A DNA stretch of 64,000 bases from an uncultured Rhodopseudomonas sp. Its GTDB lineage: Bacteria; Pseudomonadota; Alphaproteobacteria; Rhizobiales; Xanthobacteraceae. The notes below the pieces were generated by a model that did not search any database, was not told where the DNA came from, and saw only the letters and a program-made list of their open reading frames with translations. A program made the translations under genes and the position numbers. Where the stretch lies: the NCBI GenBank assembly GCA_964249215.1, contig CAXUBE010000001.1:5292-69291 (forward strand). Reading direction: 5' to 3'. Shown piece after piece: positions 3,027-60,938 of the stretch (positions are counted from its first letter, which is position 1; the number at the start of each line of letters is the position of its first letter).

Positions 3027-3060
3027 TGGCAGTTCCTCGAAAATGACGGGTGGCGCACGC

Positions 3061-4035: not shown

Positions 4036-4049
4036 GGAACGGTCTTTCC

Positions 4050-33987: not shown

Positions 33988-34196
33988 AATCCACTTTTGA
34001 CTACTGGTGCGTCAGACCCACGGTGCCGCGCCGCCGCTGAACCTCGCGTCTTCACGCGACATGGATTGAAGTCGCTTCGGGCAAGGTGGCAAGGCTTCTG
34101 AAGAAGCAGGTGGTGGGCCGGAACAAGTCGTGCGGTTGACTTGGTATCTCACCGGTTCAATTTTCGGATCCCGCCACCATGATCGACGTCGTCGTT

Positions 34197-35732: not shown

Positions 35733-35984
35733 GTGCGACGGCTCCTGCTTCGTGATGACGGACGATGACAGCGACGGGATCATCCGAGCGGGTTCAGTTC
35801 ATCCGGAAGATCGTGAAGATGGCAAGCGACGGATCGGGGATCGGAAGGTGTCGCGCCCGCCGAACGCTGGATGCCGGCGACACAGCCGCGCGCGAGGATG
35901 CGCGCTCGAGAAGCCGGGAAAACGTCGCGCTATGGCGTCGAAGGCCGCAGCGCGCGAGCGCCGGGATCAGCAAGCGGCGGTTGT

Positions 35985-36065
35985 TTTTTAGTAGACTTCC
36001 ACAGGCGGCGAAGATACACATCCATAAGCTATTAATTCATTAAAATTTTCTCGATCAGAATTTAG
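35985..36065 (+). promoter_or_regulatory. AT-rich island upstream of the giant operon (candidate promoter/operator region)
   Basis: TTTTTTAGTAGACTTCC...CATAAGCTATTAATTCATTAAAATTTTCTCGATCAGAATTTAGAT stands out sharply from the GC-rich flanks. It contains the near-palindrome TTAAT-TC-ATTAA (about 36032-36043). No consensus promoter could be assigned. Confidence 0.3.
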
Positions 36066-36117
36066 ATCGCGGTTGCCCGCGCGCGGCGCAAGCCGTTTCA
36101 AATGATGAGCCAGCATC

Positions 36118-37782
36118 GTGACATTGCCCCAGCCCGACCAGCAGCAGCGCGCCGACATCCAATACGTTCTCAGCCTGACCAACGGCGAGCGCCAGCATCA
36201 CCTGTTCGATTTCAGCGACGAGCATCAGTATCGCTACGCGGTCGCGAAGCTGATACGGGCCGGTAAAACGCCGGACCGTTATCCCGGCCTGCATGAGATG
36301 CTCAGTCGCTCCCGTGACGAGCATATCAAAAACGGGCCGCCGAAAGCCGATGCGCCGGCAAGCGGCGACAATGTTTTCATATCCGGACCTCAGATCACCA
36401 ATTCCGGACTCATCCCGTCGACCCGCAACATCGCCGGCATGGGTTATCATACCCAGATCGGCGGCACATCGATGACCCAGGTGGTGTGTGAGGTCGTCAA
36501 CTCCGACACGAATGGCATCCTCGCTTCGGGGTCAAATGCGCAATACAATCTCGGCGAATACGTTCCGGTGCAGACCAATGACGCAATGGCTGCTCCCGCC
36601 TCGACCAACATGACCACGTCGATCAGCTACTTCTATCAGACGCAGCCCGGTCACCCGATGCAATCTGGGAGCATCAGTTTTAATTTCAAGCGATTGACCA
36701 CGTCGGATCCGGTGGTCACCCAGCCGGTCAAAACACAAGCCAAGATTCCGGCCTATATCGTGGTCGGCCTGGGCCGCGGGAATTACGACAAGACCGCCGT
36801 CGATTACTGGTTCTGGCAGGATAAGGAAGAATATCCGAATCTGGCCGTGCCGCTGGTCGGAAACGTCACTTTCGACAATCCGATTCAGCCGCTCAATCCT
36901 AACACCACCATCACGCTGTTCGTCGATCTCGCAAAGGCCGGTGGCGGTCACGTACAGCCGACCGGTGCGGCGATGGCCAACGTTTATAACAATTTCAAGA
37001 TATCGCAGGCCAATAACAAGACGCTGACCTTTGATCTTCCGGCGAACGGCGTTCAGGCCACGACCAATCCGATCGTGTTCGGCGTCACGACATGGGTGTC
37101 GGATACGGTCACCTATCTGACCGTCAACATGTTCGTGAATTTGCAGGGACAAAGCACGCCATCCTACGCGTCGATCAGCAGTTCGCTCCAGGCGAACCCC
37201 GATATCGTGGACGGGACGACCTACATCAAGCCGATCCAGTTCGTCTGGCATTGTCTTGCCGCAGGCACGGAGATCGCCATGGCCGACGGCTCGATGCGAA
37301 AGATCGAGACGCTGGTGAGCGGCGAGGCCGTGAGCGTCAACAACGACGGCGGAACGATGAAGGTCGAATCGACCATAGTCGCGCCGCATCGCGGACCCGC
37401 GCTCCGGCTCACAATGGCTGACGGCAAGGAACTGGTACTCTCGGACGGCCATGCGGTCACGCTGCCGGATGGCGAGACCCTGATCGCCGAAGAGCTGGAG
37501 GCGGGAGACAAGCTTACCGTCCTCGGCGGCGTCGCCGAGATCGCGGGTGTCGAGAACATCGAATTCGACGGCTTATTGTTCAATCTGTCGCTTGCAAACG
37601 ACGACACCGGCGAACCGACCACCATGTTCGCCAATGGCATTCTCGTTGGGGACCACGCGATGCAATCGGCGACGCGCAAGCGGCGCAGGACCAGGCCCGA
37701 GCGGGTGCGCTCCGCGATCGATCCGATCTTCCTTCCTGATTACGAGAGCTATCTTCAGGATATCGGGCAGACATCGCCGTAG
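36118..37782 (+). CDS. Giant-operon gene 1: protein with ~378-aa unassignable beta-rich N-terminal region, a Hint (intein/Hedgehog-like, BIL-type) domain and an Arg-rich tail
   Basis: 554-aa ORF with a GTG start; the first in-frame ATG is codon 61. Hint blocks are present: WH-CLAAGTEIAMADGSMRKIETLVSGEAV (block A, Cys379 at nt 37252), GKELVLSDGHAVTL (block B, S-x-x-H) and LLFNLSL...MFANGILVGDHAM (blocks F/G without the terminal HN). The tail is QSATRKRRRTRPERVRS. No signal peptide. Confidence 0.8.
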   Translation: MTLPQPDQQQRADIQYVLSLTNGERQHHLFDFSDEHQYRYAVAKLIRAGKTPDRYPGLHEMLSRSRDEHIKNGPPKADAPASGDNVFISGPQITNSGLIPSTRNIAGMGYHTQIGGTSMTQVVCEVVNSDTNGILASGSNAQYNLGEYVPVQTNDAMAAPASTNMTTSISYFYQTQPGHPMQSGSISFNFKRLTTSDPVVTQPVKTQAKIPAYIVVGLGRGNYDKTAVDYWFWQDKEEYPNLAVPLVGNVTFDNPIQPLNPNTTITLFVDLAKAGGGHVQPTGAAMANVYNNFKISQANNKTLTFDLPANGVQATTNPIVFGVTTWVSDTVTYLTVNMFVNLQGQSTPSYASISSSLQANPDIVDGTTYIKPIQFVWHCLAAGTEIAMADGSMRKIETLVSGEAVSVNNDGGTMKVESTIVAPHRGPALRLTMADGKELVLSDGHAVTLPDGETLIAEELEAGDKLTVLGGVAEIAGVENIEFDGLLFNLSLANDDTGEPTTMFANGILVGDHAMQSATRKRRRTRPERVRSAIDPIFLPDYESYLQDIGQTSP

Positions 37783-37832
37783 CCCGCCGCGGCGGCCCGG
37801 GATCGTCGATGGCGACATGACACGGCGGGGGC

Positions 37833-40800
37833 ATGGTTGATACACCGGTCTTTATCAGCGGATCTTATGATGCTTCCGGCAGGGTTTTGGCTGCGTGGCA
37901 GTATTCCGGTGCGGTCAATTTCATTCTGGCGGTTTTTCAAGGCGAGCCCGCTGGCACATCCTGGATCGCGTCGACTCCGGTCACGGGCTATATCGGAAGC
38001 CTGACGATCAAGCCCGCGTCGCTCGATCCGAGCTTCGCCTATACGGTCGCGGTGGCTGTCGATCAGGGCAACGGCGTCCCCGGACCGTGGAGCGTGCCGC
38101 TGAGCCTTGTGTTCCAGCGGGTCACCGGCATCTTCACCACCTATACCGGCAACGCGCTGACAGTCGGCTGGACGATCCCTTACCCCAGTTCGATCGCGAA
38201 GGTGGCCGTCGCGCTGACAAACACGACCACCGGCATCACGATCAGCAAGACGTCGAGTGGAATCTACAACGACAATGAAGTGACCTTCGCGCTGAAGACG
38301 CCGCTCGCCATCGGCGACGCGTATACGCTGGCCCTGACCGGCGTGAGCGGTACTTTTTCCGGACCGCCTGCGGGTGGGCCGGCTCCCATCGTGGCGGCGC
38401 CGAAGCTGAGCAGCCTGACCTATACGGTCGCAAAAGTCGGGACTGCAAAAATCGCCGCCATCGCCGATGTGGTGTTTCCTGCTCCTGCGCCGCAGGTCGT
38501 CATGCAGTTGTACGAGGACGGTGTCTCGATCCTGCAACAACGCGGACAGGGGTTTGTCGCGCAACTCGATCTCGCCGCGCCGCTGTCGCTTTGGTCGACT
38601 TACACGGTCGGCTTGTTCTATCAGGATGGTTCGAACATCGGGCCTGTCGGCAATCACGGCAACGTCCTGCAAACTGCACCGACGATTGTGTCCACGGCAT
38701 TCGACGGAACCAACGTCACCGTGACCTGGACGATCTTGCCCGGCGATCCAGCGCCGACCGGCGCCCAGGCGACGCTTTATGACGTTGCCAACAAGAACAA
38801 CGTCGTCGGCGCGGGTTTTGCCAACGGCCTGTCAACGACGTTTGCTCCGGACGAGACGCTCGGCGTCACGGGAAACTATGCCCTCGCGCTGTGTCCGCTG
38901 CAGGGTCAATCGCAGGGCGCCGAAGGACCGGCGACGCCCGTCATCGCCGCGACCAGGGCGATCACCTCGCTCGGCTATGACGGCGCGCGGATTCTGGTGG
39001 CCTATGCCGATGCGCTCGGCACCAACGTCACCGGTTACGTGCTGCATCTGATGTCTGGCACGCAGTCGGTGCGACAGATCCGGTCCGGGCTGACCGGCGG
39101 GTTGATCGACATCGCGCTCGATCAGACAACGCCATATCAGGTCGCCGTGCAGGCGGTGGGCGGTGTCGCCACCGGGCCGATCGGCCCCGCCATCACGGTC
39201 ATCACGCAAGTTCCCGCGCTCGGCAACATTGCGCTGAGCGCACCGAACAATGCGCCGCAGGTGGCAGCACAGATCACGCCGCCCGGCGTAATGCCGAACG
39301 GCGCCAGCTATCTCGCTTATCTTTACGAGGGCGACCGGCAAGTCGCGGGGCCGATCACCGCCTCCGGATCGCCGCTGATCGCGGTGTTTTCGATCGACGC
39401 TTTCGGCAAGAGCGGGTTTACAGTCCGCGCTGCCGCAACGGCGACGATCAACAGCGCGACAGTCACGGGTCCGCTGAGCCCTGCTGCGCCAGTGCTCGGG
39501 GCAGCGCCGCGGATCACCTCGGTGATGGTCGAGCCGGATGCAGCCGACGCGACCAGATGGCGCTTCACCATCGAATGGGTCTTGCCCGACGTCGCGCCTG
39601 GCGCACTCGCCACTTCGGCGGTCACGGTGATGCAGGGTGCGAGTGCCGTGGCGACGTCTCCTGACGCGACCGGCACCGGCGTTCAGTTCTCTGTCGCGAT
39701 GGCGAGCATCGACGCCACCAAGCCCGGCAGTATCACGGTCGCCTCCAAGGGCCCGTTTGGTGTGAGCCCTTGCAGCGTGGCCGTGAGCGTGGCCTTCGCC
39801 GCGCCGGCGTTGCGATCCGTCGTCTGCGGCAATCGCGAAATCGCGGCGGACTGGACCTGGTCGCAGGCCGACAGCGCGGTTGCTGCCATCGCCAGTTCCT
39901 ACCGCATCCTGCTTTATGATCTCAGCGTCTCGCCGCCGGCCTTGATCCATGTCTCTGCGTCCACGCAAAGCCTGAGCAGCGGCCTGTCGATGACCGAGGC
40001 CCCGCTCGGCCATCTGACGAATGTGGGCATCGGCATCGAAGTCGATGCCGGCCTGTCGCAATGCCGAAGCGCCGGCAGCCCCACAGCCTTGGTCCTGGAT
40101 CCGCCGGCCATCACATCCAGCGCGGTGTCGGGCACCACGCTGACGCTCGCATGGGCGTCGCCCGCGATCCCGGCGGGTGTGACGATCTCGGGCTATCTCG
40201 CGCGATTCCGCGTCGGTGGCGGTGCGGCTATGACCGCGACGATTTCCGGTACCGCCGCGACCGCCACGATCGATCTCGGCACGATCAGCGGATTGACGGA
40301 TGACCCGATTCAGCCAGCACAGGTGACGCTTGCTGTGCAGGCCTTGACGGTGACAGGCCCCGAGAGTGACGGCGTGCCCGTCCTGCGCCATGCCGCGACG
40401 GCGACGCCGAACGCGATCGCAACCGCCACGACCATCGTGGCGCAGTGGGAGCCTGCTCCCGGACCGGTCGAGACTTACAAGGTCGTCATCGCCAAGGACG
40501 GAACGGCCGTCATGACGGCCTATTCGCCGGTCGCCGTTATCACCGTTCCGAACGCCTCTCAGGTCAAGGACAGCACTTACATGCTCGCCGTGACGCCGAT
40601 GATCGGTGCAGCGGCGGGGCCGGCCAGCCCGTCGCTTGGTCTGGCGCTGATCGCGCCTGCATTGTCCGATGCGGTGTTCGATGGCAAGATCGTGACCGCG
40701 ACCGTGACTCCTCCGGGTATCGGCACCACGCTGGTGACCGGCTATCGGATGATGCTGTCCGTCAACGGTCGCACCACGCAGAGCTATGACGCCCCCTTCG

Positions 40801-41985
40801 GCGGCACCATCGCGATGCCGGTGGATCGTCCGATCGACGCCTCGGCCGCCTATGCGGTCAGCGCAAGCGCGCTCGCCGGAAACGCGGTCGGCCCGCTTGC
40901 CAATCCTGCCGTCATGATCTCCAGTGCCCCGGCCATCACGGCCGTGACATGCACCGGGACGAGCCTGGTCGTGACGCTCGATCCGTCTTCGGTCGCGGTC
41001 GGTGGCACCACGTTGCAGGGATGGCTGTACACAGATGGCATTGTCGGCGATGCGGTGGTGGCGAATGACAACAAAGTCACCTTCACGGTTGCTGCCGGGC
41101 ATGGCTATCAAGTCGCCTCGCAGGCAATCAAGGGCGGCAGCAAGGGACCGCTGTCGAGTCCGATTGCCGCGTTGACCGTTAGTCCGGCACTGGCGAGCGC
41201 AATCTACCGAGACGGACAACTCGCGATCGCCTGGAGCGGCACGGACGGAAACGGCTGCTATCTCGTCACCGTCGCGACCACGGCGGCTCCGGTGATTCAA
41301 TCGCGCGTCAGCGGCCTCGGCACTATTCTCGCGTTCAACGCAGATCCGACGATCAGCTACACGCTCGCCGTCCAGCAGATCGACGGGATCGTCACCGGAC
41401 CGGCAATGGCCGGCACCGCTATCGCCACATCGGGCTGTGCTGTCAGTTCCGTGGTTTTCACCGATACCGCCACGGCGACGATCACTTGGAGCGCGCCAAC
41501 GTCGCAAGCCGCCAGCGTCACACAATACCAGGTCGTGGCGGTCACGACCGACGCCGGCGCCGAACAGATCCTCAAAATCGTATCAGCGCCGACGATGACC
41601 GCGTCCGTATCAACAGCCGGTCTGTCACCGGGGCTGAGTTACGTCGTCGCGGTTCGTCCGGTCATCACCAACGCGACCGGGCCGATCGGCCCCCCGATCC
41701 CGCTGGTCGCATGCCTTCCGTCGGGGCTTGAGGCCTATTACGACGGCCATGCCATCGTCGCGCAATGGACTGCGGCCGCCGACCCCCGCATCACGGGATA
41801 TCACGCGATCATCTCGATCGCCGGACAGAACGACATCCCGGTCGATACCGCATCGACATCGTTCCGGTATGTCTACGACATATCCGGCGTGGCTTCGACG
41901 GCACCGATCGCGGTGAAGGTCGCCGCCTGGGTCGGCAGCGGCTCGATCGGGCCCAATACCGCCGCAGTCGATGTCCGCACCGGCA
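37833..41985 (+). repeat. Array of ~15 divergent FN3-like protein modules (repeat at protein level only)
   Basis: I set the module boundaries by eye from the recurring pattern: PxL/I.S....G..L.V.W, then (I/V)(T/S)GY....., then Y.V.V.A, then GP.S/GP. No nucleotide-level repeat is evident, so the modules are old and diverged. Confidence 0.6.
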
Positions 41986-43190
41986 ATCCGGCCTTCTATG
42001 TCGGCGATCTTCCGAGCGGCGTGGTTCCGGCTGTCTATGCTTGCCCGACCGTGCCGCCCGGCGCGACCGATCTCGTTTTCTATCTGCCCGAACTGTTCGC
42101 CACGCATCAGACGACCGCGATCACACAAGGACCGTTCACGCTCACGCCGATGACGCCGGTCGTGGCACCTTACGCCTATACGGTGAGTATCGCCACAAGC
42201 AGCGATCTGTGGAGTTTTGCGAGCGTTTCAGCGCGGCAGACCATCGCGTCGCAGTTCGCAAGTTTCCTCGCGACCATTGCCGGGACGACGGGGGCGTTCG
42301 TCGAAACGCCGCGCATCTTGCAGCAGACATTGGCCGCAGGGCTGCCGCTCAGCTTCACCGAAAGTCTGTTTTATCGCTACAGCTTCGATCCGTTGATGCG
42401 TTACGTCGATCTGCAAGCCGGCATGCGTCTCGAAATACGCTTTGAAAGCTATCAGTACGTTACCGGCAACAGCGACGGGATCGACGGCTTCGTCACCGGC
42501 ACCTCCGTGGTCTACGATATCGCCGCGCTTCCGGAAGGCTCTGGCCTGGGGTTCATCGCGCTCGATCCGTTTCTCGGCTCGCTGCAGGCGATCAGCTTCG
42601 GTGCGCCACAACAGGGTGGCGCGGGCGGCATCATCGATCTGCAGACAGCGGCATACCGGCGCCCTTTCATCCGGCTGTTCTATCCGGCGAGCTTCCCGTC
42701 GGGACAGAGCACCGGCAGTCCGGATGCCAATCACGCGGTCGCCGTGGTCGCCGCCACGACGTGGAGCGCGCTCGATGGCGTCACCCAAAGCTTCATTCAG
42801 TTCGGCACGTTGCCGGCCGCCTCTGCGACCGTCTCGATCACCTATTTCCGCGGCCGCGCCGTGCTGACGCCATTGATCGCGGTGAGCATCAATGGCGCGA
42901 GCAGCTTCGTGCCGCTGGGTACGACGCTGGGGTCCACCTTCGCCGCGCATGGTCTGATGCCGGCGCTTACCGGCGTTGCCGCCTCGGGGCTTTCGCTGCG
43001 TCGTGCGGTGACGCCCAACCTGTCGCCGACGGAGATCGCATCGGGCATCAAGCTCGCGAACAAACGCCCCGTGATGGCGCTCTATCAGAAGCTCGCCGCA
43101 CTTTCCGATGGCACCACCGTGTTCGACTTGCCGCTGGTGCAAGGCGACGAAATCTTGACCGGCCGCCATGCCGACGCGTTGGCGCGATGA
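37833..43190 (+). CDS. Giant-operon gene 2: 1,785-aa protein with ~15 tandem FN3-like modules and a ~400-aa non-repeat C-terminal domain
   Basis: Codon usage and amino-acid composition are coding-like (Ala/Thr/Val/Gly/Pro rich, not Arg-rich). There are recurrent ~90-aa modules with FN3-type anchors (LTVGWTIP, VTVTWTILPGDP, IAADWTW, LTLAWASP..ISGYLARF, IVAQWEPAPGP.ETYKV, ATITWSAP..VTQYQVV, IVAQWTAA..ITGYHAI), each ending in ..GP.S.P. No signal peptide. Confidence 0.8.
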   Translation: MVDTPVFISGSYDASGRVLAAWQYSGAVNFILAVFQGEPAGTSWIASTPVTGYIGSLTIKPASLDPSFAYTVAVAVDQGNGVPGPWSVPLSLVFQRVTGIFTTYTGNALTVGWTIPYPSSIAKVAVALTNTTTGITISKTSSGIYNDNEVTFALKTPLAIGDAYTLALTGVSGTFSGPPAGGPAPIVAAPKLSSLTYTVAKVGTAKIAAIADVVFPAPAPQVVMQLYEDGVSILQQRGQGFVAQLDLAAPLSLWSTYTVGLFYQDGSNIGPVGNHGNVLQTAPTIVSTAFDGTNVTVTWTILPGDPAPTGAQATLYDVANKNNVVGAGFANGLSTTFAPDETLGVTGNYALALCPLQGQSQGAEGPATPVIAATRAITSLGYDGARILVAYADALGTNVTGYVLHLMSGTQSVRQIRSGLTGGLIDIALDQTTPYQVAVQAVGGVATGPIGPAITVITQVPALGNIALSAPNNAPQVAAQITPPGVMPNGASYLAYLYEGDRQVAGPITASGSPLIAVFSIDAFGKSGFTVRAAATATINSATVTGPLSPAAPVLGAAPRITSVMVEPDAADATRWRFTIEWVLPDVAPGALATSAVTVMQGASAVATSPDATGTGVQFSVAMASIDATKPGSITVASKGPFGVSPCSVAVSVAFAAPALRSVVCGNREIAADWTWSQADSAVAAIASSYRILLYDLSVSPPALIHVSASTQSLSSGLSMTEAPLGHLTNVGIGIEVDAGLSQCRSAGSPTALVLDPPAITSSAVSGTTLTLAWASPAIPAGVTISGYLARFRVGGGAAMTATISGTAATATIDLGTISGLTDDPIQPAQVTLAVQALTVTGPESDGVPVLRHAATATPNAIATATTIVAQWEPAPGPVETYKVVIAKDGTAVMTAYSPVAVITVPNASQVKDSTYMLAVTPMIGAAAGPASPSLGLALIAPALSDAVFDGKIVTATVTPPGIGTTLVTGYRMMLSVNGRTTQSYDAPFGGTIAMPVDRPIDASAAYAVSASALAGNAVGPLANPAVMISSAPAITAVTCTGTSLVVTLDPSSVAVGGTTLQGWLYTDGIVGDAVVANDNKVTFTVAAGHGYQVASQAIKGGSKGPLSSPIAALTVSPALASAIYRDGQLAIAWSGTDGNGCYLVTVATTAAPVIQSRVSGLGTILAFNADPTISYTLAVQQIDGIVTGPAMAGTAIATSGCAVSSVVFTDTATATITWSAPTSQAASVTQYQVVAVTTDAGAEQILKIVSAPTMTASVSTAGLSPGLSYVVAVRPVITNATGPIGPPIPLVACLPSGLEAYYDGHAIVAQWTAAADPRITGYHAIISIAGQNDIPVDTASTSFRYVYDISGVASTAPIAVKVAAWVGSGSIGPNTAAVDVRTGNPAFYVGDLPSGVVPAVYACPTVPPGATDLVFYLPELFATHQTTAITQGPFTLTPMTPVVAPYAYTVSIATSSDLWSFASVSARQTIASQFASFLATIAGTTGAFVETPRILQQTLAAGLPLSFTESLFYRYSFDPLMRYVDLQAGMRLEIRFESYQYVTGNSDGIDGFVTGTSVVYDIAALPEGSGLGFIALDPFLGSLQAISFGAPQQGGAGGIIDLQTAAYRRPFIRLFYPASFPSGQSTGSPDANHAVAVVAATTWSALDGVTQSFIQFGTLPAASATVSITYFRGRAVLTPLIAVSINGASSFVPLGTTLGSTFAAHGLMPALTGVAASGLSLRRAVTPNLSPTEIASGIKLANKRPVMALYQKLAALSDGTTVFDLPLVQGDEILTGRHADALAR

Positions 43191-46735: not shown

Positions 46736-46744
46736 GGCAACCAT

Positions 46745-48271: not shown

Positions 48272-48279
48272 GCGCACGC

Positions 48280-54200: not shown

Positions 54201-57200
54201 CGCTGCAACTCATCCAGAGCGGATACGCAGCGGCCTCATCGTAGGCGTTGCCGATGTCACCACGCTGACCATCCCGATCACGCAAGCGGACATGATCGCG
54301 GGCTATCCGACGCGCACGTTCACACCGGGCGTCGTAACCCCGCTTGCACCGCTGCCGCTGTATCGTCTGGTGCCGGTTCGCTACGGCGTGCAGCAATATC
54401 TCGGATGGCAGGCCGGCGCGCCGATCGTACTTCCTCGGTCCGGTACGCCGATCGATGCGCTAACCGGCGGCCCGGGAATCTGGATGTTCCCGGACACGCT
54501 GCTCGGTGCCGTGAGCGGTCAGGTTGGTGCAAGCGCCGCCTACAAGCTGTTGCAAGTCCCCGCCACCGATCTCAGCAGTTCGACGACGCCTGTCGAGGCG
54601 GCGTCCTACGGATGGGCCACACTCATTCCGTTCGGGGCCAGGCAGATCGCCCGCGATGCCGATCCTGACAAGGTGCTGCCGAACACCTATGGCGTCGGCG
54701 GCGCCGCCGCCGAGGATCGTCCGCGGCTGCTGGCGCTGTATCAGCACCTTGCCACCATGACGGCGGCCGATCTCAAGAAGGTGCGGCTCTCTCTGCTGCA
54801 TCGGCCGCGGTCCGACACCACGCGGCCAGAGGGCCTAGCGTCGATTCCGCTCGATCTTGCATCGACCTATGTCCTGAAGGCCAACCTCACCACGGAAACG
54901 CGCAGCGGCGCACAACGGCTGCGCTCTCTCGGTCTCGACGACGAGAGCTTGCGCGACATCCACGCCGCGCCGATCTCCGATCCGGCTGCCTTCACCGGCC
55001 TGCTGTGGGCCGCCAGTATCACCAACAGCGGCGGATTCTATCTGAATTATCGCGGCAGCAAAGGCGAAGGCCTGCCGCCCGGCATTTTCGGCAAGGATGG
55101 CGGCGGCGGCGAAATCTGGCTGATGGTCTTGCTCCCCGACCAGACCACCGGCGCACCGTCGCAACGCGGTTTGTACGGGTTCAACAACGCCGCGGTCACC
55201 GGCGGCAATCTTCTGCCGGCCGACTGGCAGTTGTTCATGGAAATGGGAACCAACGCGCCAACCGCGAAAGTGGCGAGCGTCGATCCCGGCGTGATTGCGT
55301 TCTCGACGGCGTTGAACAACCCCGACCTCGCGCAACCCTCCGCGGCTCGGACCGCCAGCGAGCTGTTCAGCCTGATCGCCTATGGCGTGGCGGAAACAGC
55401 CGCTTTCAAGGCGAGCTATCAGGCATTGCCGGTCGGGCCGGAGGAGTCGGCGCAGAAACAGTTGAACGTCGAAATGGTGGAGCGCAAACGGATCGACGCG
55501 CCAGCCGACGCGCCTTATTGGCTCTTCCATCAGGGCCTGCGCATCGCGGGGCAAGCCAGGATATTGCTGGCACCGAACACCAGTGGCCTGCCGCCGCCCG
55601 CACAGGATCCCTATGCCGGCATCGGCGCCGACGCAGTCGCCAACCTGAACTTCCAGTATCGCGATATTTTCGGCAACCAGACGCTGCCTGCCGACGCCTG
55701 TCAGAATATCGCTTTCCCGGTGGGCTACACCGATCCGGTGGTCGGCGTCGGTCAGTGGCCGGGGGCGGTGCCGTCTTACGTTGTCGCACCCGGACAACCG
55801 TCCAATCTCATTGTGTCGATCGGCTATCAGATGCTGGGCGCGCTGCCGGGCATGACCGACCCGCTGGATGGCGTGCAGCTCCGCACGACGAAGACCATCG
55901 AGCGGCTGTCGCTGGTTTACTACCAGATGATGCGGCCGGACCTTGCGGTGCAGCTCACCACCACGCTGCCGGTCGCGCCCGACATGGGCGAGACCTACAC
56001 CACCATCGCTAAAGCCGCGTTCGCCGATGTTGTCGCCGCAGCCTATCTGTTCCTGAACGGAACGCTGCAATTGCGTCAGGCCGTCGCGGATCTCAGCGTC
56101 GCGCCGACATTGGCGCAAGTGCAAGGCACGTACCGCGTCACGGCGGGCCAGATCGCTGCGATCAACGCCGCCGTCCCGATCGATGCGATCTTCGCAGCCG
56201 CCCCGACCGTGCCGCAGTTCTATACATTCGCGCCCGGTGACAGCGCGGCGTCGATCGTCGCGGCCCATGCATCGGTACCCGACGCAAAGACATTCCTGGA
56301 GCAAAATGACGGTCTTGGCCTTACGCCGGGTAAAATCCTGTCAGCGCCGGCCCGTACCATCACCAGCGGCGTTGCCGGGCCTTCGCTTGCCAAGCTCGCA
56401 GCCGTAAATCTGTGTTCGGTGGGCGGGTTGGGTAGCGCCAACGCTACGGCGTCCGGTTGTCTCGCCCCCAAGCTCACGCTGACTTTCGAGACGATCAGTC
56501 TGACCGCCAACGATGACGAGTCGCTGGCCCAACTCGCCAGCCGCTTCAGCGACGCATTGCTCGGGCTCAGCGTGGGGACCGCGCCGTCCGCGTGGAAGGT
56601 GACGCCCGCCGACCTTGCCAGCGCAAATGCCGGCGTCGCTCCGTTCTTTGCCGACAATCAAATCATCACGATACCGGATGCGCTGGTCGTGAAGAACGAC
56701 ACGCTGGCCAGCATCGCGGCTCGCCACAGCGAGTACAGCGTGGACAGCCTTTCGTCGAGAAATACCGGTGTGGCGGACGTCTTCCCGTCAGGTCTCGCCA
56801 CGCTTTTGACCGCCACCCAGATCGCGCCGGTGCAGGTGACGCTCGGTGATTTCGCCGCCGGCCATGGTCTTACCGGCGATCAACTGGTTGCCGCGAACGG
56901 CACGACGTTACTCAAGACCACTGCGCCGTTGGGCATACCGGGCATGACGAACCTGCCGGCCGTCGGCGGGGCTGTCGTTGCTTACTATCTCGCCGCCGGT
57001 CAGACCCTCGCCGCGGCGGGCAGCGTTTTCGCGCAGACCGCGGAAGCTTTCGCCACCACCAATCAGGCGCTTCCCAATCGTTTCTCTGGATCGCCCGTGT
57101 TCATCAGCGGCGCGCATCGCGTGCAGGCGAACGATGCGGATTCGTTTGCAACGTTGTTGATCAAGGCGGAGGCGGCCGGCGTTGCCAGTACGATCGCCGA

Positions 57201-60200
57201 ACTGGTTGCCCTGATCGATGCGCAACCTGCCTCGCTCCGTCCGCGCGCGCTCTACACCGGCGCCGCCGTCGCAACGCCGTCGGCGATGAGCCTGCAGGCG
57301 CTGGCCGATCTCTACAACGTCACGCCGTCGCAACTGGCGCTCGCCAATCCCGGACAACTCCGTTTCACCGCCGCGTCCGGCAACATCAGCTTTCAGGGCC
57401 GCGGCCTGACCGTCACGATCCACGACACGCTCAATGCGCTGTCGGCTGCGTTCAACCGGATCTACGGAATCGACGCGCCGGTCGAAGCGCTCGCTGCGGC
57501 CAATGCCATGACGTTGCTGGTCGCCGCCGGCCAGCCTCTGCTGTTGCCGGTCTGTGCTGCGGTGGCGAGCGCCGAACTCGATCCCGTCAACGTCGGCTAC
57601 CCCGATTCGATCTTCAAGATCGAAGTGGCGATGACACTCGCGCGCACGCAAACCGAATGCATCAATCCGAATTTCCGCGACGCCGCGGCCGCCAATGTCG
57701 CGAAGGCGACAAGCGCCATTCCGCCTGCCGCGCAGGCCCAGAGCCGGCAAACCCTGTCGCTGATCGGTTTCGCCAGACAGTTCGAGGAAGCGCTGCCCCA
57801 TGTGAAAATCGCCACGGGCCGTCGCGGCAGCGGTGCCGACCCGTCAGGGCAGACCAGCCCGCGCGACCTCTGGGCAGTGGTGTTCGGCCCGAAAGGCTTC
57901 AGCTCCGTTGCGCTCGACGGCACGAACGCAGATTTCTACGGCGTGCGACCGCTTTGGCGAAAGCTGATCACGCGCAACCACGTGATGTTCAAGGAATTCC
58001 ATGACGGCTGGGACGCCGAGGCGACGGCTCACAGTTTCCAGAGCGTCGACATCGAGAGCTGGGCGCTGGGTTTCCTCAGTGTCATGGACCTGATGCTGTC
58101 GCCGGGCTACGCGGTGCCACTCTATGCGCTCGACTTCGACGCGAGTGCCGGTGTCTATGCGAAGATCGTCGGCGCGAAACAGGCGCTGGTTGCAGCGATC
58201 GGAGCGGGCGTCGCTTCGATCCTCGCTCAATCGCCCGGCACCGATCAGGCTGCGGCCCGCACCAAGCTGCAGGATCGGCTCAAGATGACGTTGGCCGACA
58301 ATTATCGGACCACCGCAATCGTCCAGTTCCCCGTGACCGTGACGGGCACCACGGCCCATGGTCCGGCAAGGCTCGTCGGCAAGCCGCTGTCGTTACGCCC
58401 GGTTACATCGGCGACCACGCGCGGGCTCGACAGCCTTGCCGCAAGTTTCGGCGTCTGGAACGTGTATCTCGCCGAAATCGTCGCCGAGATGCCGAAAGTT
58501 CTCAATCAGCAACTGACGATCACCATCGGCGCCTCGCAATACGCGATCGTGCCCGACAGCACGATCGCGGCGATCGCCGCGTTCTTCGGCTATCCGACCA
58601 TTCAAGCCTTCGTCGCGGCGTTGCCGCAGGCCGACAATGATGTGCTGTTCGCAAAAGATATCGAACTCAATCTGCAGGGATTGAGGCGGGCCGTCAGCGA
58701 TACACCCGGCACGTTCGAGGAGCTTGCGCAGTATTTCGATATCTCGGTCGGTCAGGTGGCGCGGGCCAATGCGAATGTCAGCGGAGTGTTTGTGCAGAAC
58801 GCAATGCTGGCCTATCCCGGCAAGCCGGATGTGACGATCACGATCGCCGCGCCCGCCACGACAACGCTGCTCGGCGCGACGCAGATGTTCACCGGGCAGG
58901 CGGCGCCCAGCGTGCAGGCCCTGGCGCAAGCCAATCGAAATGCGCCGGTGATCGCCCCGACGCTCACTGCGAAGGTCGTGGAGATGCTTCCGGAGCATTC
59001 GCTCAGCACCGGCAAGCTCGATCTTTCCAAGGCGTCCTCGACCGTGGACATCCTGTTCAATATCGCAAGTCAGGAACAGCACAAGAAGGTGTTTCTCGAT
59101 CTCGCCTATGAGATCAGCGAGGTCGAATACGACATTCAGGTGGTGCCGAACACCGGCGGCTATGAACGCTCCGAATGGTTGTCGCTGATCATTCCCATCA
59201 ATCGGCAAAACGGCGCGCCGCAGGGTGTCTCGATCAGTCCCGGCATCCAGGAGATACCGGTGCCGCTGCGGTTCTATCCATCCAATCCCACGCTGCTTGG
59301 GCAGGGCGGCGGTGCAACCGAGGCCGCAGCCACCACGCTTGGCGATGCTAGATTGTGGACCTATTCCAGCGGCTATCGCCTGCAAATGGCCGAGCAGGAC
59401 AAGGCGACTTTTATCGTGACGTCGAATGCGGCGGCCGGATATCAAATGTCGCGCGCGGCCGACGATCCGGCGTCCGTGATGCCGCTGTTCGAGGCGCTTG
59501 CGCAATTCATCACCGTCTATCCACAAATCCGTCCCGCGCTGTCGTCGCTGCTCAGCGACACAGGCAATGCAGCCGCCCAGCTCGCCGCCGCCAGTGCGTT
59601 TGCCGACATGGCTGCCGCCGTGGCAGGCGCCTGGGCGCGCCGCTGGGCGCCGATCCAGATCCGGTTGGCCGCGTCTACAAGCGATATACCTTTCCCGCCG
59701 GTGCCGGTGGCTTTCGACGTCACCTTCACCGCGCAGTGGTCGCTCGATCCCCCTGCCATCGACACCGTGGTGTTGACGCTGGCATCGGATGCCCCGACCG
59801 GCGTGGTGCCATTCCCGGATCTCACCGCCATCTGGCGCGATACAGTGCTCCGCCCGATCAAGCAGAGCGTCGGCGCTCGTTCTTGCGTCTACCAGTTTCA
59901 GCCGTCGGCGGAGCATCCCACGCAGAACATTCCGGCCTTCGACGCCGTCGGCTACACGTGGAATTTCGCCGGCCTTAACGTGGTGCTGCAGCAAACCGCA
60001 ATATCGGCACTCGAAATCACCCGCAACGCGGTGCTTGTGTCGCAAGGACCGACGGCGGAGGCCTTTGTCTATACGACACCGATCGCCGGCTTCAATCAGC
60101 CGCTGCTCCCTTTTGTCCAGCAGGGCGGCCTCATCGACATCACAGGCCTGGGCGCAAATCCCGGCAGCGCGTTGTCAGGCGCCCTCGCAGTGTTGTTGGC

Positions 60201-60498
60201 TGGCGATCCCGCGACCGCGCGCGCGATGCGGCTGGCATTGCAATACGGATATGAACTCGCGCCCCCTTTGGGCGGCGGCCAGCCGATCATCAGCAACCTG
60301 CCGATTGCCTTCTTGCCGCAATTCGCCGCGGACCAGGCCGGGGATGTCCAGTCCGTGATCGACTACTGGTTTGGACGCACCACCGTGTCGCAAACGAACG
60401 GCCGCATTTTGTTCGATCTCACCATCTATTCCGGCATGCCGGAGCACCCCGATCGACCGGTGCTTGCGGTCCAGCGGCTCGAATACCGCCTGAATTGA
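48280..60498 (+). CDS. Giant-operon gene 5: 4,072-aa protein with a beta-rich N-terminal ~1,240 aa and at least 14 degenerate LysM-like modules in three clusters
   Basis: Uninterrupted 12.2-kb ORF with coding-like third-position GC and composition. LysM-like modules include YTSRVGDTVASIAALY, YTSYAGDTLDTIADAL, YTFAPGDSAASIVAAH..FLEQNDGL.LTPGKIL, VVKNDTLASIAARHSEYSVDSLSSRN and TIHDTLNALSAAFNRIYGIDAPVEALAAANAM..AGQPLLLP. No signal peptide, RTX repeats or TM anchor seen. Confidence 0.8.
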   Translation: MDWQDLQPSVDGLISGGVLTLDQTHNLNSPSILALLTSTRLLAVVADVSSKGYQGTHYVVQGAIERANFPYTIGSAGNPLPVTLDFYVQDMLAQITATVTLPSNYTLAMSFPYILDQAVNLFPIGAASMTFASVGNDPPDAPSSILLPPPYKGMSIAGTMSGLAANPLTSSLLWFIPDRDVFPVSGPVIMREGVNYLGETEYRPTMYLIGALLEPLSLGPFRFGVSLMAQSTYARITGSDQSSFYSGAYYIGQLQAAITRQQGIDVLVQMQLLDGYQSLYSFELSKPIPLTSLNQLQDIAALSPGESYSAMIPSEVPTGLRFELNELTFIVAPTLRTLASMTLGVKLTVQWEVIPGVFTLENMSLRFVVPNPAAELSGVVATAAAELHIFDGIFDVSMTFPSLRILGQIRQGTQITYAAVSTALFGKVLELPGIADPTLYELSVDIEPRQQTYRISAVVLDLLSVDLGFVTINLDEVDIAFTYSSLSQAGRFGARFELVTAGNDVEASDDPLTFGFSVSAAGMRTGGVTTWTVEGGIGADHVIPLGTLVARLLGFSVSQDISILDIEDVLVSMTIPSTGPTSFYFEGAARSRWTIGIFGGWSIEIAAAARLERIPAESISLLTLPAMRPLDTAGMQTSGEISGRLAINNFNLAVVYQFAPNSRVLIFQASYKQATLTAALSKGKDAKGQDTYLLKFNLAGVTLGDIITWMVNLARPGSDFSLSAPWDVLNGIDLSRFTLVVDLIQKTVTISYEVNADFLFIKLKSIGLTYYRNQGKGSVKIAVEGSFIDVSYGDGNPPLEWDLLDDPPPAVPGETGLFKLRYLGLGQHISLDSYAQIDTVEQAIEGLRAAMRPPEAADENPLLQSGTVALNFDANSHWLFGADFTALGALQLSMVFNDPYIYGALIRLMGEKAGALAGLRFELLYKKVTDDIGVFKADFIMPDAFRQLEFGEVSITLGRVHVDIYTNGNFFVDLGFPHNRDFSNSFGLQVFPFAGWGGFYLGALTGATSIKVPRIDNGRFDPVIEIGLGLSVGVGKTIEKGPLSAGMTLTFEAIVEGVFADFAPTDRSAASGFFYRVEGTAALVGRVFGKVDFFVIRVDFSAEASARVTLVIEAHQPIYVQIELHIDVRASIKILFVRIHFSFSLTLDLAFTIGHATSTPWQIADDQTARLDLLAARSGPHWPFPAMRPHYKRLVRSTRLLRHVASGNGPSAYGLLGRKEIRHSSLPPLYLQKAAAGTLTWTPANVFPAGKIETLRLLCTPGFTVADPGIGSSGTPGAYRLVLTMGAETSRHIQLRGNAGLGVPSVAHSLQATAVADAPFNLFIEAFLRWGLNIVKTGDQVSAVALDELAANLRLPATAGTGFSYANLIAFLKDNFLISIAGKPTGATPDEVPVAAFPMLPLLSFTADKGAPVAFDQPQYMLTADYRAALDTIFYQLSATGKPRRDLQDDAVAESFAQFIFRECCLMVTQAAVDACIGLLESFAYKLEATTTLKGIVDAFAPLHIAISARGGQKLAHIAALFGTDIERLQALNPPLVAKARLAADDTVVVPVELTVGAIIDDNRDHPLAARSFQVDAAPHQIRGDRSLNQIATDYGLETAVNLVTGQTATQRELLRPDASIICSVLQYTSRVGDTVASIAALYLARRAQLGDATARAALVPDIAQWFAQAVADLNPNQDFGSVVPANTALNVPKTYGSVATTTSYTSYAGDTLDTIADALSLLNLASPPAVLTAYQVAIVQANPSLPNPIPVATAVKIPAFTLTLPARVALDDLAAGLLQTLAKTIGLIADNAAALTPHTVIVLPPFTITTTATDTFAGLAQKYDLGYDALGNAAESVAGIFATAPTATVTLKDLPRVGVEQLISQLITGQGLANQISGQISRFLLHGVRVPSPTDAHPLTAPLVSILDLSGQQFPGPDPEQYGNGETYPIVVSLTDSADQSWISFTATETLQQGETLPALRARIADFDRHNPAAATHPERIRSGLIVGVADVTTLTIPITQADMIAGYPTRTFTPGVVTPLAPLPLYRLVPVRYGVQQYLGWQAGAPIVLPRSGTPIDALTGGPGIWMFPDTLLGAVSGQVGASAAYKLLQVPATDLSSSTTPVEAASYGWATLIPFGARQIARDADPDKVLPNTYGVGGAAAEDRPRLLALYQHLATMTAADLKKVRLSLLHRPRSDTTRPEGLASIPLDLASTYVLKANLTTETRSGAQRLRSLGLDDESLRDIHAAPISDPAAFTGLLWAASITNSGGFYLNYRGSKGEGLPPGIFGKDGGGGEIWLMVLLPDQTTGAPSQRGLYGFNNAAVTGGNLLPADWQLFMEMGTNAPTAKVASVDPGVIAFSTALNNPDLAQPSAARTASELFSLIAYGVAETAAFKASYQALPVGPEESAQKQLNVEMVERKRIDAPADAPYWLFHQGLRIAGQARILLAPNTSGLPPPAQDPYAGIGADAVANLNFQYRDIFGNQTLPADACQNIAFPVGYTDPVVGVGQWPGAVPSYVVAPGQPSNLIVSIGYQMLGALPGMTDPLDGVQLRTTKTIERLSLVYYQMMRPDLAVQLTTTLPVAPDMGETYTTIAKAAFADVVAAAYLFLNGTLQLRQAVADLSVAPTLAQVQGTYRVTAGQIAAINAAVPIDAIFAAAPTVPQFYTFAPGDSAASIVAAHASVPDAKTFLEQNDGLGLTPGKILSAPARTITSGVAGPSLAKLAAVNLCSVGGLGSANATASGCLAPKLTLTFETISLTANDDESLAQLASRFSDALLGLSVGTAPSAWKVTPADLASANAGVAPFFADNQIITIPDALVVKNDTLASIAARHSEYSVDSLSSRNTGVADVFPSGLATLLTATQIAPVQVTLGDFAAGHGLTGDQLVAANGTTLLKTTAPLGIPGMTNLPAVGGAVVAYYLAAGQTLAAAGSVFAQTAEAFATTNQALPNRFSGSPVFISGAHRVQANDADSFATLLIKAEAAGVASTIAELVALIDAQPASLRPRALYTGAAVATPSAMSLQALADLYNVTPSQLALANPGQLRFTAASGNISFQGRGLTVTIHDTLNALSAAFNRIYGIDAPVEALAAANAMTLLVAAGQPLLLPVCAAVASAELDPVNVGYPDSIFKIEVAMTLARTQTECINPNFRDAAAANVAKATSAIPPAAQAQSRQTLSLIGFARQFEEALPHVKIATGRRGSGADPSGQTSPRDLWAVVFGPKGFSSVALDGTNADFYGVRPLWRKLITRNHVMFKEFHDGWDAEATAHSFQSVDIESWALGFLSVMDLMLSPGYAVPLYALDFDASAGVYAKIVGAKQALVAAIGAGVASILAQSPGTDQAAARTKLQDRLKMTLADNYRTTAIVQFPVTVTGTTAHGPARLVGKPLSLRPVTSATTRGLDSLAASFGVWNVYLAEIVAEMPKVLNQQLTITIGASQYAIVPDSTIAAIAAFFGYPTIQAFVAALPQADNDVLFAKDIELNLQGLRRAVSDTPGTFEELAQYFDISVGQVARANANVSGVFVQNAMLAYPGKPDVTITIAAPATTTLLGATQMFTGQAAPSVQALAQANRNAPVIAPTLTAKVVEMLPEHSLSTGKLDLSKASSTVDILFNIASQEQHKKVFLDLAYEISEVEYDIQVVPNTGGYERSEWLSLIIPINRQNGAPQGVSISPGIQEIPVPLRFYPSNPTLLGQGGGATEAAATTLGDARLWTYSSGYRLQMAEQDKATFIVTSNAAAGYQMSRAADDPASVMPLFEALAQFITVYPQIRPALSSLLSDTGNAAAQLAAASAFADMAAAVAGAWARRWAPIQIRLAASTSDIPFPPVPVAFDVTFTAQWSLDPPAIDTVVLTLASDAPTGVVPFPDLTAIWRDTVLRPIKQSVGARSCVYQFQPSAEHPTQNIPAFDAVGYTWNFAGLNVVLQQTAISALEITRNAVLVSQGPTAEAFVYTTPIAGFNQPLLPFVQQGGLIDITGLGANPGSALSGALAVLLAGDPATARAMRLALQYGYELAPPLGGGQPIISNLPIAFLPQFAADQAGDVQSVIDYWFGRTTVSQTNGRILFDLTIYSGMPEHPDRPVLAVQRLEYRLN

Positions 60499-60871
60499 TG
60501 CAGGAGGCCGAGCCATGAATCCCGGCCCGCAAAACGCGGCAAAGCGAGGTCTATGCAGCCAGCATCGCCGCGAACGGCATTCTCCGCTATCTGGTTTGGC
60601 GATCGCCGGGTAAGCAAGCCGCGGCTGGGTAAGAAAGATTTCATAACAAGTTTGCTGGTGCCTAAAGCTTAAGCGAGTTTTGTTCAAGCGGGCCATTGGA
60701 ACGATATGATCTTTGCGGAAACCTCATTCTGCAGTCCTTTTAAGACAAAAAGCTGTGTAACTGCCCTAAATTTTAGCATGTGCGGTTGCAAATCAATCAC
60801 CGATAATCGAGCGTTCAAATTGCATTTATGCACGATAACGTGCACTTTTCCGGCATTTCATTTTGCGTTTA

Positions 60872-60898
60872 GCGGAGCGAACAATGCCTTCGCTCCGC
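60872..60898 (+). other. Perfect 10-bp stem hairpin 40 nt upstream of the ABC permease gene
   Basis: GCGGAGCGAA-CAATGCC-TTCGCTCCGC. There is no flanking T-run on either strand, so its function is unknown (regulatory or an RNA-stability element). Confidence 0.35.
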
Positions 60899-60938
60899 AC
60901 GGTCGTCGGCCAAAGCGCGAGTCGGCGGTAGGTACAGC

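Follow-up and report, generated by a model that had tools for sequence, protein, structure and literature searches.

A cassette of giant proteins with an exchangeable enzyme slot, conserved across bacterial phyla and represented by five genes of an uncultured Rhodopseudomonas

The stretch of DNA analyzed here, a 64,000-nucleotide window on contig CAXUBE010000001.1 of an uncultured Rhodopseudomonas sp., carries five co-directional genes, g1–g5, that form a cassette found again, in the same order, in other bacterial phyla. The conserved core of this cassette is g3 together with g5, usually joined by the C-terminal domain of g2 (g2C). The Hint domain of g1, the FN3 modules of g2, and the LysM modules of g5 are lineage-specific additions, and the copy in the window is a fully decorated five-gene representative. 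Between g3 and g5 lies a slot in which enzymes of unrelated fold alternate; an enzyme that can be exchanged while its scaffold stays the same is what marks a cargo or effector. We take the cassette to be one functional unit because its gene order is conserved, its genes are translationally coupled, and its members are linked by gene fusions. The reading that we favor, to which we would give somewhat less than an even chance, is that the cassette encodes a self-contained complex that assembles in the cytoplasm, carries a nuclease as cargo, and acts on other cells. The genes and their parts are as follows.

36118–37782, + strand: g1, an open reading frame (ORF) of 554 residues
36118–37251, + strand: g1N, the N-terminal domain of g1 (residues 1–378), a conserved family with no known fold
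37252–37653, + strand: Hint (bacterial intein-like) autoprocessing domain of g1 (residues 379–512), identified by weak hidden Markov model (HMM) matches and conserved residues
37654–37782, + strand: conserved basic tail of about 42–45 residues after the Hint domain, with the motif R..IDP.FL.DYE in an alignment of 18 orthologs
37833–43190, + strand: g2, an ORF of 1785 residues
37860–41975, + strand: array of 15 FN3-like modules in g2 (residues 10–1381), from Pfam fn3 (E = 1e-16) and an internal HMM
42030–43190, + strand: g2C (residues ~1400–1785), a conserved core component whose stop codon overlaps the g3 start (ATGA)
43187–46735, + strand: g3, an ORF of 1182 residues that starts inside the ATGA overlap
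46745–48271, + strand: g4, an ORF of 508 residues, an EEP-fold metal-dependent phosphodiesterase or nuclease that occupies the swappable slot
48280–60498, + strand: g5, an ORF of 4072 residues
49240–51768, + strand: N-terminal core block of g5 (residues ~321–1163), conserved in every g5 homolog
52804–54189, + strand: first LysM-like array of g5 (residues ~1509–1970), from an internal HMM
54550–55989, + strand: middle block of g5 (residues ~2091–2570), which matches a 634-residue gene of Flavobacterium johnsoniae and the homologs P0012 and P0013
56098–57540, + strand: second LysM-like array of g5 (residues ~2607–3087), from an internal HMM, with one more module at residues 3478–3508
57760–60498, + strand: C-terminal block of g5 (residues ~3161–4072), conserved in 11 homologs from 6 phyla

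Scanning a single genome for each species yielded 60 related loci, and 16 further loci were also classified by ORF calling and BLAST. With 60 loci in at least 10 phyla (Bacteroidota, Alpha-, Beta-, and Gammaproteobacteria, Actinomycetota, Acidobacteriota, Chloroflexota, Cyanobacteria, Armatimonadota, Bacillota, Gemmatimonadota, and Ignavibacteria), the family is neither rare nor lineage-restricted. An earlier, sequence-only reading of this DNA had posed the question of whether the five genes co-occur in the same order outside this lineage, and they do: the same genes stand in the same order in a Rhizomicrobium metagenome-assembled genome (MAG), in Tistrella mobilis pTM1, in Pseudomonas, Roseospira, Breoghania, Aquimonas, and others, and also in several actinobacterial, acidobacterial, and Bacteroidota MAGs. 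Plasmid copies were found by tblastn in eight genera, namely Tistrella, Nostoc, Mycetohabitans, Embleya, Paenibacillus, Lysinibacillus, Burkholderia, and Azospirillum. The same type of search found no homolog in 50,697 phage genomes, nor did two conserved peptide patterns find one in 2.9 million viral contigs (IMG/VR).

The canonical order is g1N with Hint, a protein in which g2C may follow a repeat array, g3, the enzyme slot, and g5, and the conserved cassette comprises three to five of these genes. In 55 of the 60 loci g5 comes after g3 on the same strand; a g5 homolog is present in 57, and the three loci that lack one are all cut by contig ends. Less constant are g2C (36 of 60), often a stand-alone protein of 410–490 residues immediately upstream of g3, and the Hint protein (13 of 60). 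A 4-nucleotide stop/start overlap, either into g3 or from g3 to g5, recurs in loci L001, L002, L004–L006, L008, and L009 and in Tistrella. Fission and fusion link the slot to g5: F. johnsoniae (locus L003, 13509–23489) encodes g5 in three genes, Tistrella and Paenibacillus in two, and in Burkholderia and Mycetohabitans the counterpart of the Flavobacterium slot protein forms a fusion with g5.

All three scaffold proteins carry added modules of the kind common in extracellular proteins or on virion surfaces, and these vary by lineage, with 0–15 copies of FN3, 0–12 of LysM, and Ig-like, Big_9, or cadherin modules inserted in other lineages. The sequence-only reading had envisaged a multi-component assembly with the FN3 and LysM proteins as scaffolds or binders. 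The idea of an assembly gains from the co-conservation of the unit, from the EEP enzyme in a polymorphic slot, and from the Hint residues; a central role for the arrays does not hold, as these are absent from many homologous cassettes and are not essential parts. What is conserved as the scaffold is the portion that this reading had left unassigned, namely g3, g2C, and the three blocks of g5.

The slot enzyme of the window is g4. It has no Pfam match itself, and its homolog P0180 carries PF03372. The EEP catalytic set (Asn, Glu, His, Asp-x-Asn, Asp-Asn, and a C-terminal Ser-Asp-His) is complete in g4, and residues N11, E50, H265, D308, N310, D395, N396, S497, D498, and H499 are invariant in g4 and its homologs (n = 8). 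An AlphaFold2 (AF2) model of g4 is of low confidence (predicted local distance difference test, pLDDT, 50); nearly all of its top 50 Foldseek matches in the PDB are EEP enzymes, the best being 3teb (probability 1.0, E = 2.6e-3), and its best structural neighbors mostly act on nucleic acids (CNOT6L, TDP2, EEPD1, ANGEL2, and DNase I). The PF03372 match of the homolog, the intact catalytic set, and the Foldseek matches together identify g4 as an EEP (endonuclease/exonuclease/phosphatase) enzyme with the four-layer α/β sandwich fold of that superfamily, in agreement with the sequence-only reading, and it sits in the polymorphic slot as the payload proposed there would.

Among the scanned loci, an EEP enzyme occupies the slot in about 19 of 60 and belongs to one of two subfamilies: family F, which is the g4 type, and family A (16 sequences), which is divergent. 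The two are related by hhalign (probability 98.4, E = 7e-15), and one family A member matches PF03372 at 0.009. A metallo-beta-lactamase (MBL) is found in about 11 of 60 loci and also in L002 and Tistrella (family B, 13 sequences plus those two); its invariant motifs are VGQG, HxDxDH, HH, and H, and its Pfam Lactamase_B match reaches only 2.8e-4. These motifs recall what we take to be a ComEC/Rec2-type enzyme. An HNH enzyme (family C) fills the slot in 4 loci, with a Pfam match above the gathering score (E = 5.7e-5) and the pattern CxxC...EVEH...N...CxxCN. Because three unrelated nuclease-type folds alternate in the slot, we infer that the enzyme works on nucleic acid, as an effector that can be exchanged. 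Judged from sequence, the payload at the g4 position would thus be a nuclease-type enzyme, an assignment that would also fit intracellular defense.

Slot enzymes often occur in tandem copies. In the close relative L004 (12519–15630) the EEP gene is duplicated, with one copy of 508 residues and a second split into 93 and 417 residues. Other occupants include two small proteins of unnamed families in cyanobacteria and, in some Bacteroidota, a 510-residue protein (F. johnsoniae, L003) that matches the N terminus of g5 in Burkholderia and Mycetohabitans. In Mycetohabitans (L012) and Burkholderia (L015) the homolog of this protein is the N-terminal domain of g5 or of a 1114-residue gene. A docking domain common to the slot proteins was looked for, and none was seen. 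The 8-nucleotide gap between g4 and g5 holds no small ORF; no immunity gene accompanies g4, and the same is true of the slot enzyme in most related loci.

The core protein g3 belongs to a large family. An exhaustive profile search of 1.84 billion representatives returned 1,742 clusters of relatives (50% identity) at E ≤ 1e-3 and 1,214 at E ≤ 1e-30, nearly all of 1,050–1,300 residues and every one annotated as hypothetical. A fast word-index search had returned only 8 relatives for g3 and 2 for the g5 N terminus and had missed the 4072-residue protein itself. Rarity estimates from such a search are unreliable for low-complexity, Ala/Gly-rich giant proteins, and the notion of a rare orphan cluster, which rested on 8 homologs against 1,742 clusters by exhaustive search, was rejected. 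The AF2 model of g3 has a mean pLDDT of 59, with residues 500–1100 confident and a β-rich C-terminal half of long antiparallel strands. Foldseek found nothing for this model at E ≤ 1e-3 in the PDB or BFVD, the top non-significant matches being outer-membrane barrels and phage fibers. Pfam, PHROGs, and PADLOC gave no match for g3, and PDB profile searches with 8 and 42 sequences were empty. Homology between g3 and the N-terminal core of g5 was considered and rejected (hhalign probability 0.1).

The N-terminal core of g5 is retained even in short forms of 2,000 residues and in the split Flavobacterium genes. Neither it nor the C-terminal block has a match in a PDB profile search. Membership of g5 in DUF6603 (PF20248) was rejected: the match at residues 1089–1150 scores 14.5 bits against a cut-off of 27 (E = 0.013), it is absent from 6 other members of the g5 family, and no paper among the literature searched mentions such a link. 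The LysM sequence profile is present in g5, with a summed PF01476 score of 42.9 bits (cut-off 20.9; summed E = 4.8e-11) to which no module contributes a passing score alone; peptidoglycan binding is putative. An internal HMM identifies 12 LysM-like modules with a consensus like GDTL..LA..Y...V..L...N. The sequence-only reading had counted at least 14, of which at least 12 stand; a few more are found by motif only. These modules are missing from the Lysinibacillus, Nostoc, Flavobacterium, P0012, and P0013 homologs, and g5 forms of about 2,000 residues lack the LysM arrays.

At the other end of the cassette, g1N is retained in 13 of the 60 related loci as well as in L001, L002, L004, and Tistrella; it has no Pfam match and none in a PDB sequence-profile search. 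The Hint domain that follows is supported by two NCBIfam intein models (4.9e-8 and 0.0025) and Pfam Hint_2 (0.006), all below curated cut-offs, and by a match to the intein-domain protein PDB 8w20 (0.0013). Both the block A Cys/Ser nucleophile and the block B TxxH are present in g1, and in the 18-ortholog alignment Cys1 (C379) and the T/SxxH block are invariant. The same alignment shows a conserved C-terminal G-D in the domain in place of His-Asn; the Asn is missing, and so is the combination of His-Asn with a +1 nucleophile that splicing requires. A splicing intein was rejected on these grounds. Hedgehog and B-type bacterial intein-like (BIL) domains cleave or transfer only at the N-terminal junction. 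Given that the C-terminal Asn is likewise lacking in g1, only N-terminal cleavage or transfer is expected, and cleavage is predicted to free the 378-residue g1N. The residues required for self-cleavage are thus in place for the role of self-cleaving component that had been proposed for this protein. What follows the Hint domain is a tail conserved among the 18 orthologs and not a variable toxin domain, and an arrangement of Hint before a variable toxin was accordingly rejected for g1. An orphan 92-residue fragment in L004 (JGI 3300085328, 1433–1711) corresponds to the C terminus of the Hint protein and adjoins a Terminase_6C fragment; this fragment and the EEP duplication of the same locus look like traces of recombination or cassette turnover.

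In g2, the internal HMM counts exactly 15 FN3-like modules, the number estimated earlier from the sequence, and 14, 15, 9, and 6 in four orthologs. The array is missing where g2C is a stand-alone protein, and g2C itself has no Pfam match and none in a PDB sequence-profile search.

None of the five proteins, which are low in Cys, Lys, and Glu and β-rich, has a signal-like N terminus, a transmembrane (TM) segment, or a Walker A/ATPase motif over about 8,100 residues. No signal peptide, lipobox, sortase motif, RTX repeat, or type IX secretion system (T9SS)-type C-terminal domain was found in any lineage examined, and signal peptides and TM segments are missing in Gram-positive and Gram-negative lineages alike. 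By analogy, the lack of signal peptides across monoderms and diderms would be the pattern of particles assembled in the cytoplasm. PADLOC-DB v2 yielded 0 families at E ≤ 0.1 for all five proteins, PHROGs, RTX, RHS, PAAR, and VgrG matches were likewise absent from them, and the g1N, g2C, g3, and g5 blocks match nothing in Pfam, NCBIfam, PHROGs, or PADLOC. The sequence-only reading had described largely unassignable proteins without signal, lipobox, TM, RTX, RHS/PAAR/VgrG, or phage hallmarks, in a block without a transporter, chaperone, lysis, or immunity gene. The empty scans, including those of the PDB, bear this description out, and no profile, structure, or literature match placed the five-gene set in a characterized system.

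The surroundings of the related loci are varied. In a set of 139 ORFs taken from the upstream flanks of 33 loci, every recurring Pfam family is generic and occurs at most 3 times (25 commonest families reported), and no secretion, lysis, phage, or defense-island setting is apparent in the flanks sampled. The only clear defense-type neighbor is a gene for a 1174-residue TIR_2 + KAP NTPase protein that lies divergently upstream in the Rhizomicrobium MAG (L001, 1–3340). Genes for HNH, DUF2075, vWA, and integrase proteins are near the Lysinibacillus copy. In L009 (Logan SRR22356419, 11232–13187) a 651-residue protein with an Anthrax_toxA match (edema-factor/ExoY-type cyclase) is encoded directly after a short g5 and is followed by a 603-residue hydrophobic, Ala/Gly-rich protein. 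Upstream of g3 in L012, L015, and L016 (Betaproteobacteria and Azospirillum), genes for proteins of 226–273 residues form one small-protein family with an internal duplication, and Burkholderia FERM BP-3421 (L015, 27841–28575) has a further copy directly after g5. No relation of this family to g1N or g2C was detected, nor was homology among the proteins upstream of g3 in general (g1N, g2C, the small proteins of 130 and 230 residues, and Firmicutes proteins of 284 and 326 residues).

How might such a cassette work? In the reading that we favor, the coupled genes would be translated together and their products would come together in the cytoplasm as a multi-protein complex of very large size, with g3, g5, and g2C forming its body. 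The EEP nuclease or phosphodiesterase would be bound or enclosed as cargo in an inactive state, and this would account for the absence of an immunity gene, as in toxin complexes. Self-cleavage by Hint would mature the g1 subunit or fix it covalently, and binding to surface glycans or peptidoglycan of the target would fall to the variable FN3, Ig, and LysM arrays. The complex may then be released by lysis or by an unlinked route, after which the nuclease would act in the target cell. In its logic this would be a weapon of the toxin-complex or bacteriocin kind, made of protein families that have no relation to toxin complex (Tc) toxins, phage tails, or known secretion systems. We infer the assembly of the complex, the loading of its cargo, its export, and its target. 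Its occurrence in genomic surroundings that are unrelated to one another, and on plasmids, is what an autonomous accessory weapon would lead one to expect. The reading draws its support from binding modules added in varying number to all three scaffold proteins in lineages that lack signal peptides, from an effector that is exchanged and duplicated with no immunity gene, from the Hint step, and from the horizontal spread of an autonomous cassette; the cyclase toxin gene after g5 in L009 would fit it too.

Several observations count against a delivered weapon. Enclosure of the cargo is pure analogy, and the fold of the scaffold is without a match. Some cassettes, such as those of Janthinobacterium, Burkholderia, and Azospirillum, have no recognizable slot enzyme. 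No holin, endolysin, or secretion gene lies in or adjoining the cassette, and there is no evidence of export. The LysM-like modules are degenerate, none passing Pfam singly. The Anthrax_toxA neighbor is a single case and may be a coincidence, and the flank analysis covers upstream sequence only. Swappable nucleases without immunity genes, moreover, are equally typical of defense systems.

The known systems closest in outline are the Tc (ABC) toxins of Photorhabdus, Yersinia, and Xenorhabdus. They too consist of several co-transcribed proteins of more than 1,000 residues without signal peptides, and they share an autoproteolytic step, an enclosed enzyme cargo without an immunity protein, Ig-like receptor-binding decorations, and a patchy environmental spread. 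However, VRP1, TcA_TcB_BD, SpvB, TcdB_toxin_mid, RHS repeats, the aspartyl autoprotease, and the hypervariable region are undetectable here: for TcA-type domains (VRP1, neuraminidase-like, and TcA_TcB_BD) there is no Pfam or NCBIfam match at E ≤ 0.01 in the five proteins, for RHS, SpvB, and TcdB domains there is none either, and Foldseek with g3 finds no RHS shell. In addition, the enzyme of the cassette is the product of a separate gene rather than the C terminus of a shell protein, Hint is on another subunit, and the range of the cassette extends to Gram-positive bacteria, cyanobacteria, and Bacteroidota. Extracellular contractile injection systems (eCIS), tailocins, and the type VI secretion system likewise assemble in the cytoplasm without signal peptides, and they have swappable cargo that includes nucleases, Ig/FN3 decorations, LysM-fold baseplate parts, and environmental enrichment. 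The cassette differs in having only 3–5 genes, with none for a sheath, tube, gp25/gp6/gp7 baseplate, spike, PAAR, tape-measure protein, or AAA+ ATPase; PHROGs, Pfam, and NCBIfam scans for sheath, tube, baseplate (gp25 and gp6), and spike (VgrG/PAAR) were empty.

Polymorphic toxins place HINT, a releasing peptidase, just ahead of the variable toxin domain at the C terminus and have an immunity gene downstream (Zhang et al. 2012, PMC3482391). The resemblance to these toxins lies in a Hint domain within a large multi-domain context, in interchangeable nucleases that include HNH, and in the orphan Hint-protein fragment of L004. In the cassette, by contrast, Hint precedes the conserved tail, the enzymes stand alone, no immunity gene is present (g4 is followed after 8 nucleotides by g5), and trafficking domains (signal peptide, two-partner secretion, PAAR/VgrG, and LXG/WXG) are lacking. 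Hedgehog and BIL Hint domains share the retained N-terminal Cys and T/SxxH and the missing C-terminal Asn, whereas g1N and the conserved tail are new. Avs/STAND and Lamassu-type defense systems also pair a large non-enzymatic partner with an exchangeable nuclease, lack an immunity gene, and spread horizontally and on plasmids; they differ in that the cassette has no known NTPase or sensor domain, no PADLOC match, no defense-island context in the flanks examined, and arrays of extracellular type. RTX adhesins of type I secretion systems (T1SS), such as LapA and SiiE, and LysM wall proteins are similarly very large, with tandem Ig/FN3-like and LysM-like modules, but the cassette has no RTX, C-terminal T1SS signal, retention module, or neighboring ATP-binding cassette (ABC), membrane fusion, or TolC components, and its repeats are inserted in a non-repetitive core. 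No HemolysinCabind or T1SS match was found, the flanks in the window are metabolic, and the ABC transporter downstream is an importer. Literature searches by accession numbers and key terms found no description of the cassette, with coverage that is incomplete and leaves a prior description elsewhere possible. Taken together, these comparisons mark the cassette as a system of a new kind and not a variant of a known one: none of the defining features of Tc toxins, eCIS, or polymorphic toxins that could be tested is present.

Much of what suggests a weapon could instead point to the main alternative, intracellular defense against phages or plasmids, in which g3 and g5 would sense infection and the EEP, MBL, or HNH nuclease would be held inactive until triggered. 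Defense would account no less well for the lack of export and immunity genes. The exchange of three unrelated nuclease folds in one slot without an immunity gene, the patchy spread across at least 10 phyla with carriage on plasmids, and the absence of signal peptides are all consistent with defense, as are the TIR_2 + KAP NTPase gene adjoining the Rhizomicrobium copy and the HNH, DUF2075, vWA, and integrase genes near that of Lysinibacillus. We nevertheless consider defense unlikely, though a serious candidate, because no PADLOC match was found for any of the five proteins, about 8,100 residues contain no NTPase, helicase, or Walker A motif, and arrays of FN3, Ig, cadherin, and LysM modules in variable copy number are unusual for cytoplasmic sensors; in the upstream flanks sampled, where no family recurs, no defense-island signal is apparent. 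Those same arrays, taken together with the β-rich character and the low Cys, Lys, and Glu content of the proteins, might suggest a cell-envelope or surface scaffold exported by a system encoded elsewhere, whose phosphodiesterase acts on extracellular DNA, teichoic acids, or lipids in nutrient scavenging or matrix remodeling. EEP and MBL enzymes do include phosphodiesterases that are not nucleases, but HNH in the slot points to a nucleic acid substrate. An improbable explanation on balance, a surface scaffold also sits poorly with the occurrence of the same core in monoderm and diderm bacteria, with repeat arrays that many cassettes dispense with, and with the lack of a signal peptide, lipobox, sortase motif, RTX, or T9SS-type domain in any lineage.

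It would be similarly surprising if the cassette were a known machine (a Tc/ABC toxin, a tail-like particle or tailocin baseplate, or a giant adhesin operon) that had diverged beyond profile detection. Its Tc-like sizes and logic, with several proteins of more than 1,000 residues, autoprocessing, and no signal peptides, would be accounted for, and a fold match could have been missed with a g3 model of medium quality (pLDDT 59). Yet Pfam, PHROGs, and NCBIfam report no Tc, RHS, sheath, tube, baseplate, VgrG, PAAR, or RTX match at E ≤ 0.01, either here or in the homologs scanned; profiles built from 8–42 sequences find nothing in the PDB, Foldseek finds nothing there or in BFVD, and the phage genomes and viral contigs are empty. 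That the five genes are mere neighbors without a common function is scarcely credible: order and orientation are conserved across phyla, stop and start codons overlap, and fusions and fissions link the members, against which can be set the absence of a promoter or terminator above chance in consensus scans. With these alternatives in view, the cytoplasm-assembled complex acting on other cells remains the reading that we favor. A broader claim goes further, namely that g2C, g3, and g5 define a new and ancient class of weapon in at least 10 phyla that is self-contained, takes shape in the cytoplasm independently of phage tails, Tc toxins, and known secretion systems, and delivers interchangeable nucleases into other cells, with FN3/Ig/LysM arrays for targeting and Hedgehog-like Hint maturation or ligation; we regard this as possible but doubtful.

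Turning to the locus itself, the five ORFs lie where the sequence-only reading had placed them, with spacers of 50, −4 (ATGA), 9, and 8 nucleotides. That they are real genes follows from the GC content at third codon positions (GC3), which is 0.70–0.79 in the called frame for all five, and from homologs of each protein in other phyla. The GC content of the block is the same as that of the window (0.63), and AT-rich intergenic regions flank it, as had been noted.

35784–36117, no strand: divergent intergenic region, the presumed promoter region, with an AT-rich core at 35985–36070 (GC 0.35)
60499–60938, no strand: downstream intergenic region, where the unit ends, with AT-rich sequence at 60620–60870 (GC 0.42)

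A consensus scan of the upstream region gave no sigma-70 match above chance, and no terminator exceeded chance, the one weak terminator-like hairpin (60713–60734) being at chance level. The proposal of a single transcription unit therefore rests on spacing and conserved cross-phylum synteny only. Upstream are genes of ordinary metabolism for a catechol dioxygenase, an enolase-superfamily enzyme, and a thiamine pyrophosphate (TPP) enzyme, the last on the − strand; downstream is an operon without relation to the cassette that encodes an ABC transporter of the NMT1/BPD importer type. The dioxygenase clusters at 90% identity with a protein from a Bradyrhizobium sp. MAG, a weak pointer to a Bradyrhizobium-like alphaproteobacterium as the source. 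No tRNA, Rfam element, integrase, or att-like flanking direct repeat was found at the block, and a phage or prophage origin was rejected on this basis together with the absence of PHROGs matches and of homologs in phage genomes and viral contigs.

Long mirror-image ORFs of 529, 897, and 1014 residues lie opposite real genes, at 34179–35768 (+), opposite the TPP gene at 34197–35783 (−), at 38832–41525 (−), and at 43700–46744 (−). Within these pairs, homologs or domains are found only for the − strand TPP enzyme and for the + strand genes of the operon. Since the operon proteins have homologs, the long antisense ORFs are shadows of a sequence with 63% GC, at which ORF length alone misleads. A 201-residue ORF at 29750–30355 (−) encodes only the N-terminal domain of a 4-hydroxyphenylacetate 3-hydroxylase (HpaB_N) and is probably a truncated or frameshifted gene within an aromatic-catabolism region.

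If the cassette is one functional unit, it represents a family of machines of up to 24 kb per copy without a name, a structure, or a known function, and one that reaches soil, marine, and gut bacteria, including Streptomyces, Flavobacterium, Pseudomonas, Moorena, and Lachnospiraceae. Tractable cultured hosts are at hand in F. johnsoniae, Pseudomonas, Janthinobacterium, Azospirillum B510, T. mobilis, and Streptomyces, plasmids of Lysinibacillus and Paenibacillus carry a minimal two- to three-gene version, and an enzyme with intact catalytic residues is available in g4. Were defense to prove correct, proteins of 1,200 and 4,000 residues that work without an NTPase would constitute a new principle of immunity. 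Should the cassette instead be a delivery system for interchangeable nucleases, it would open a new way of attacking other bacteria or a host and possibly offer a programmable chassis for protein delivery.

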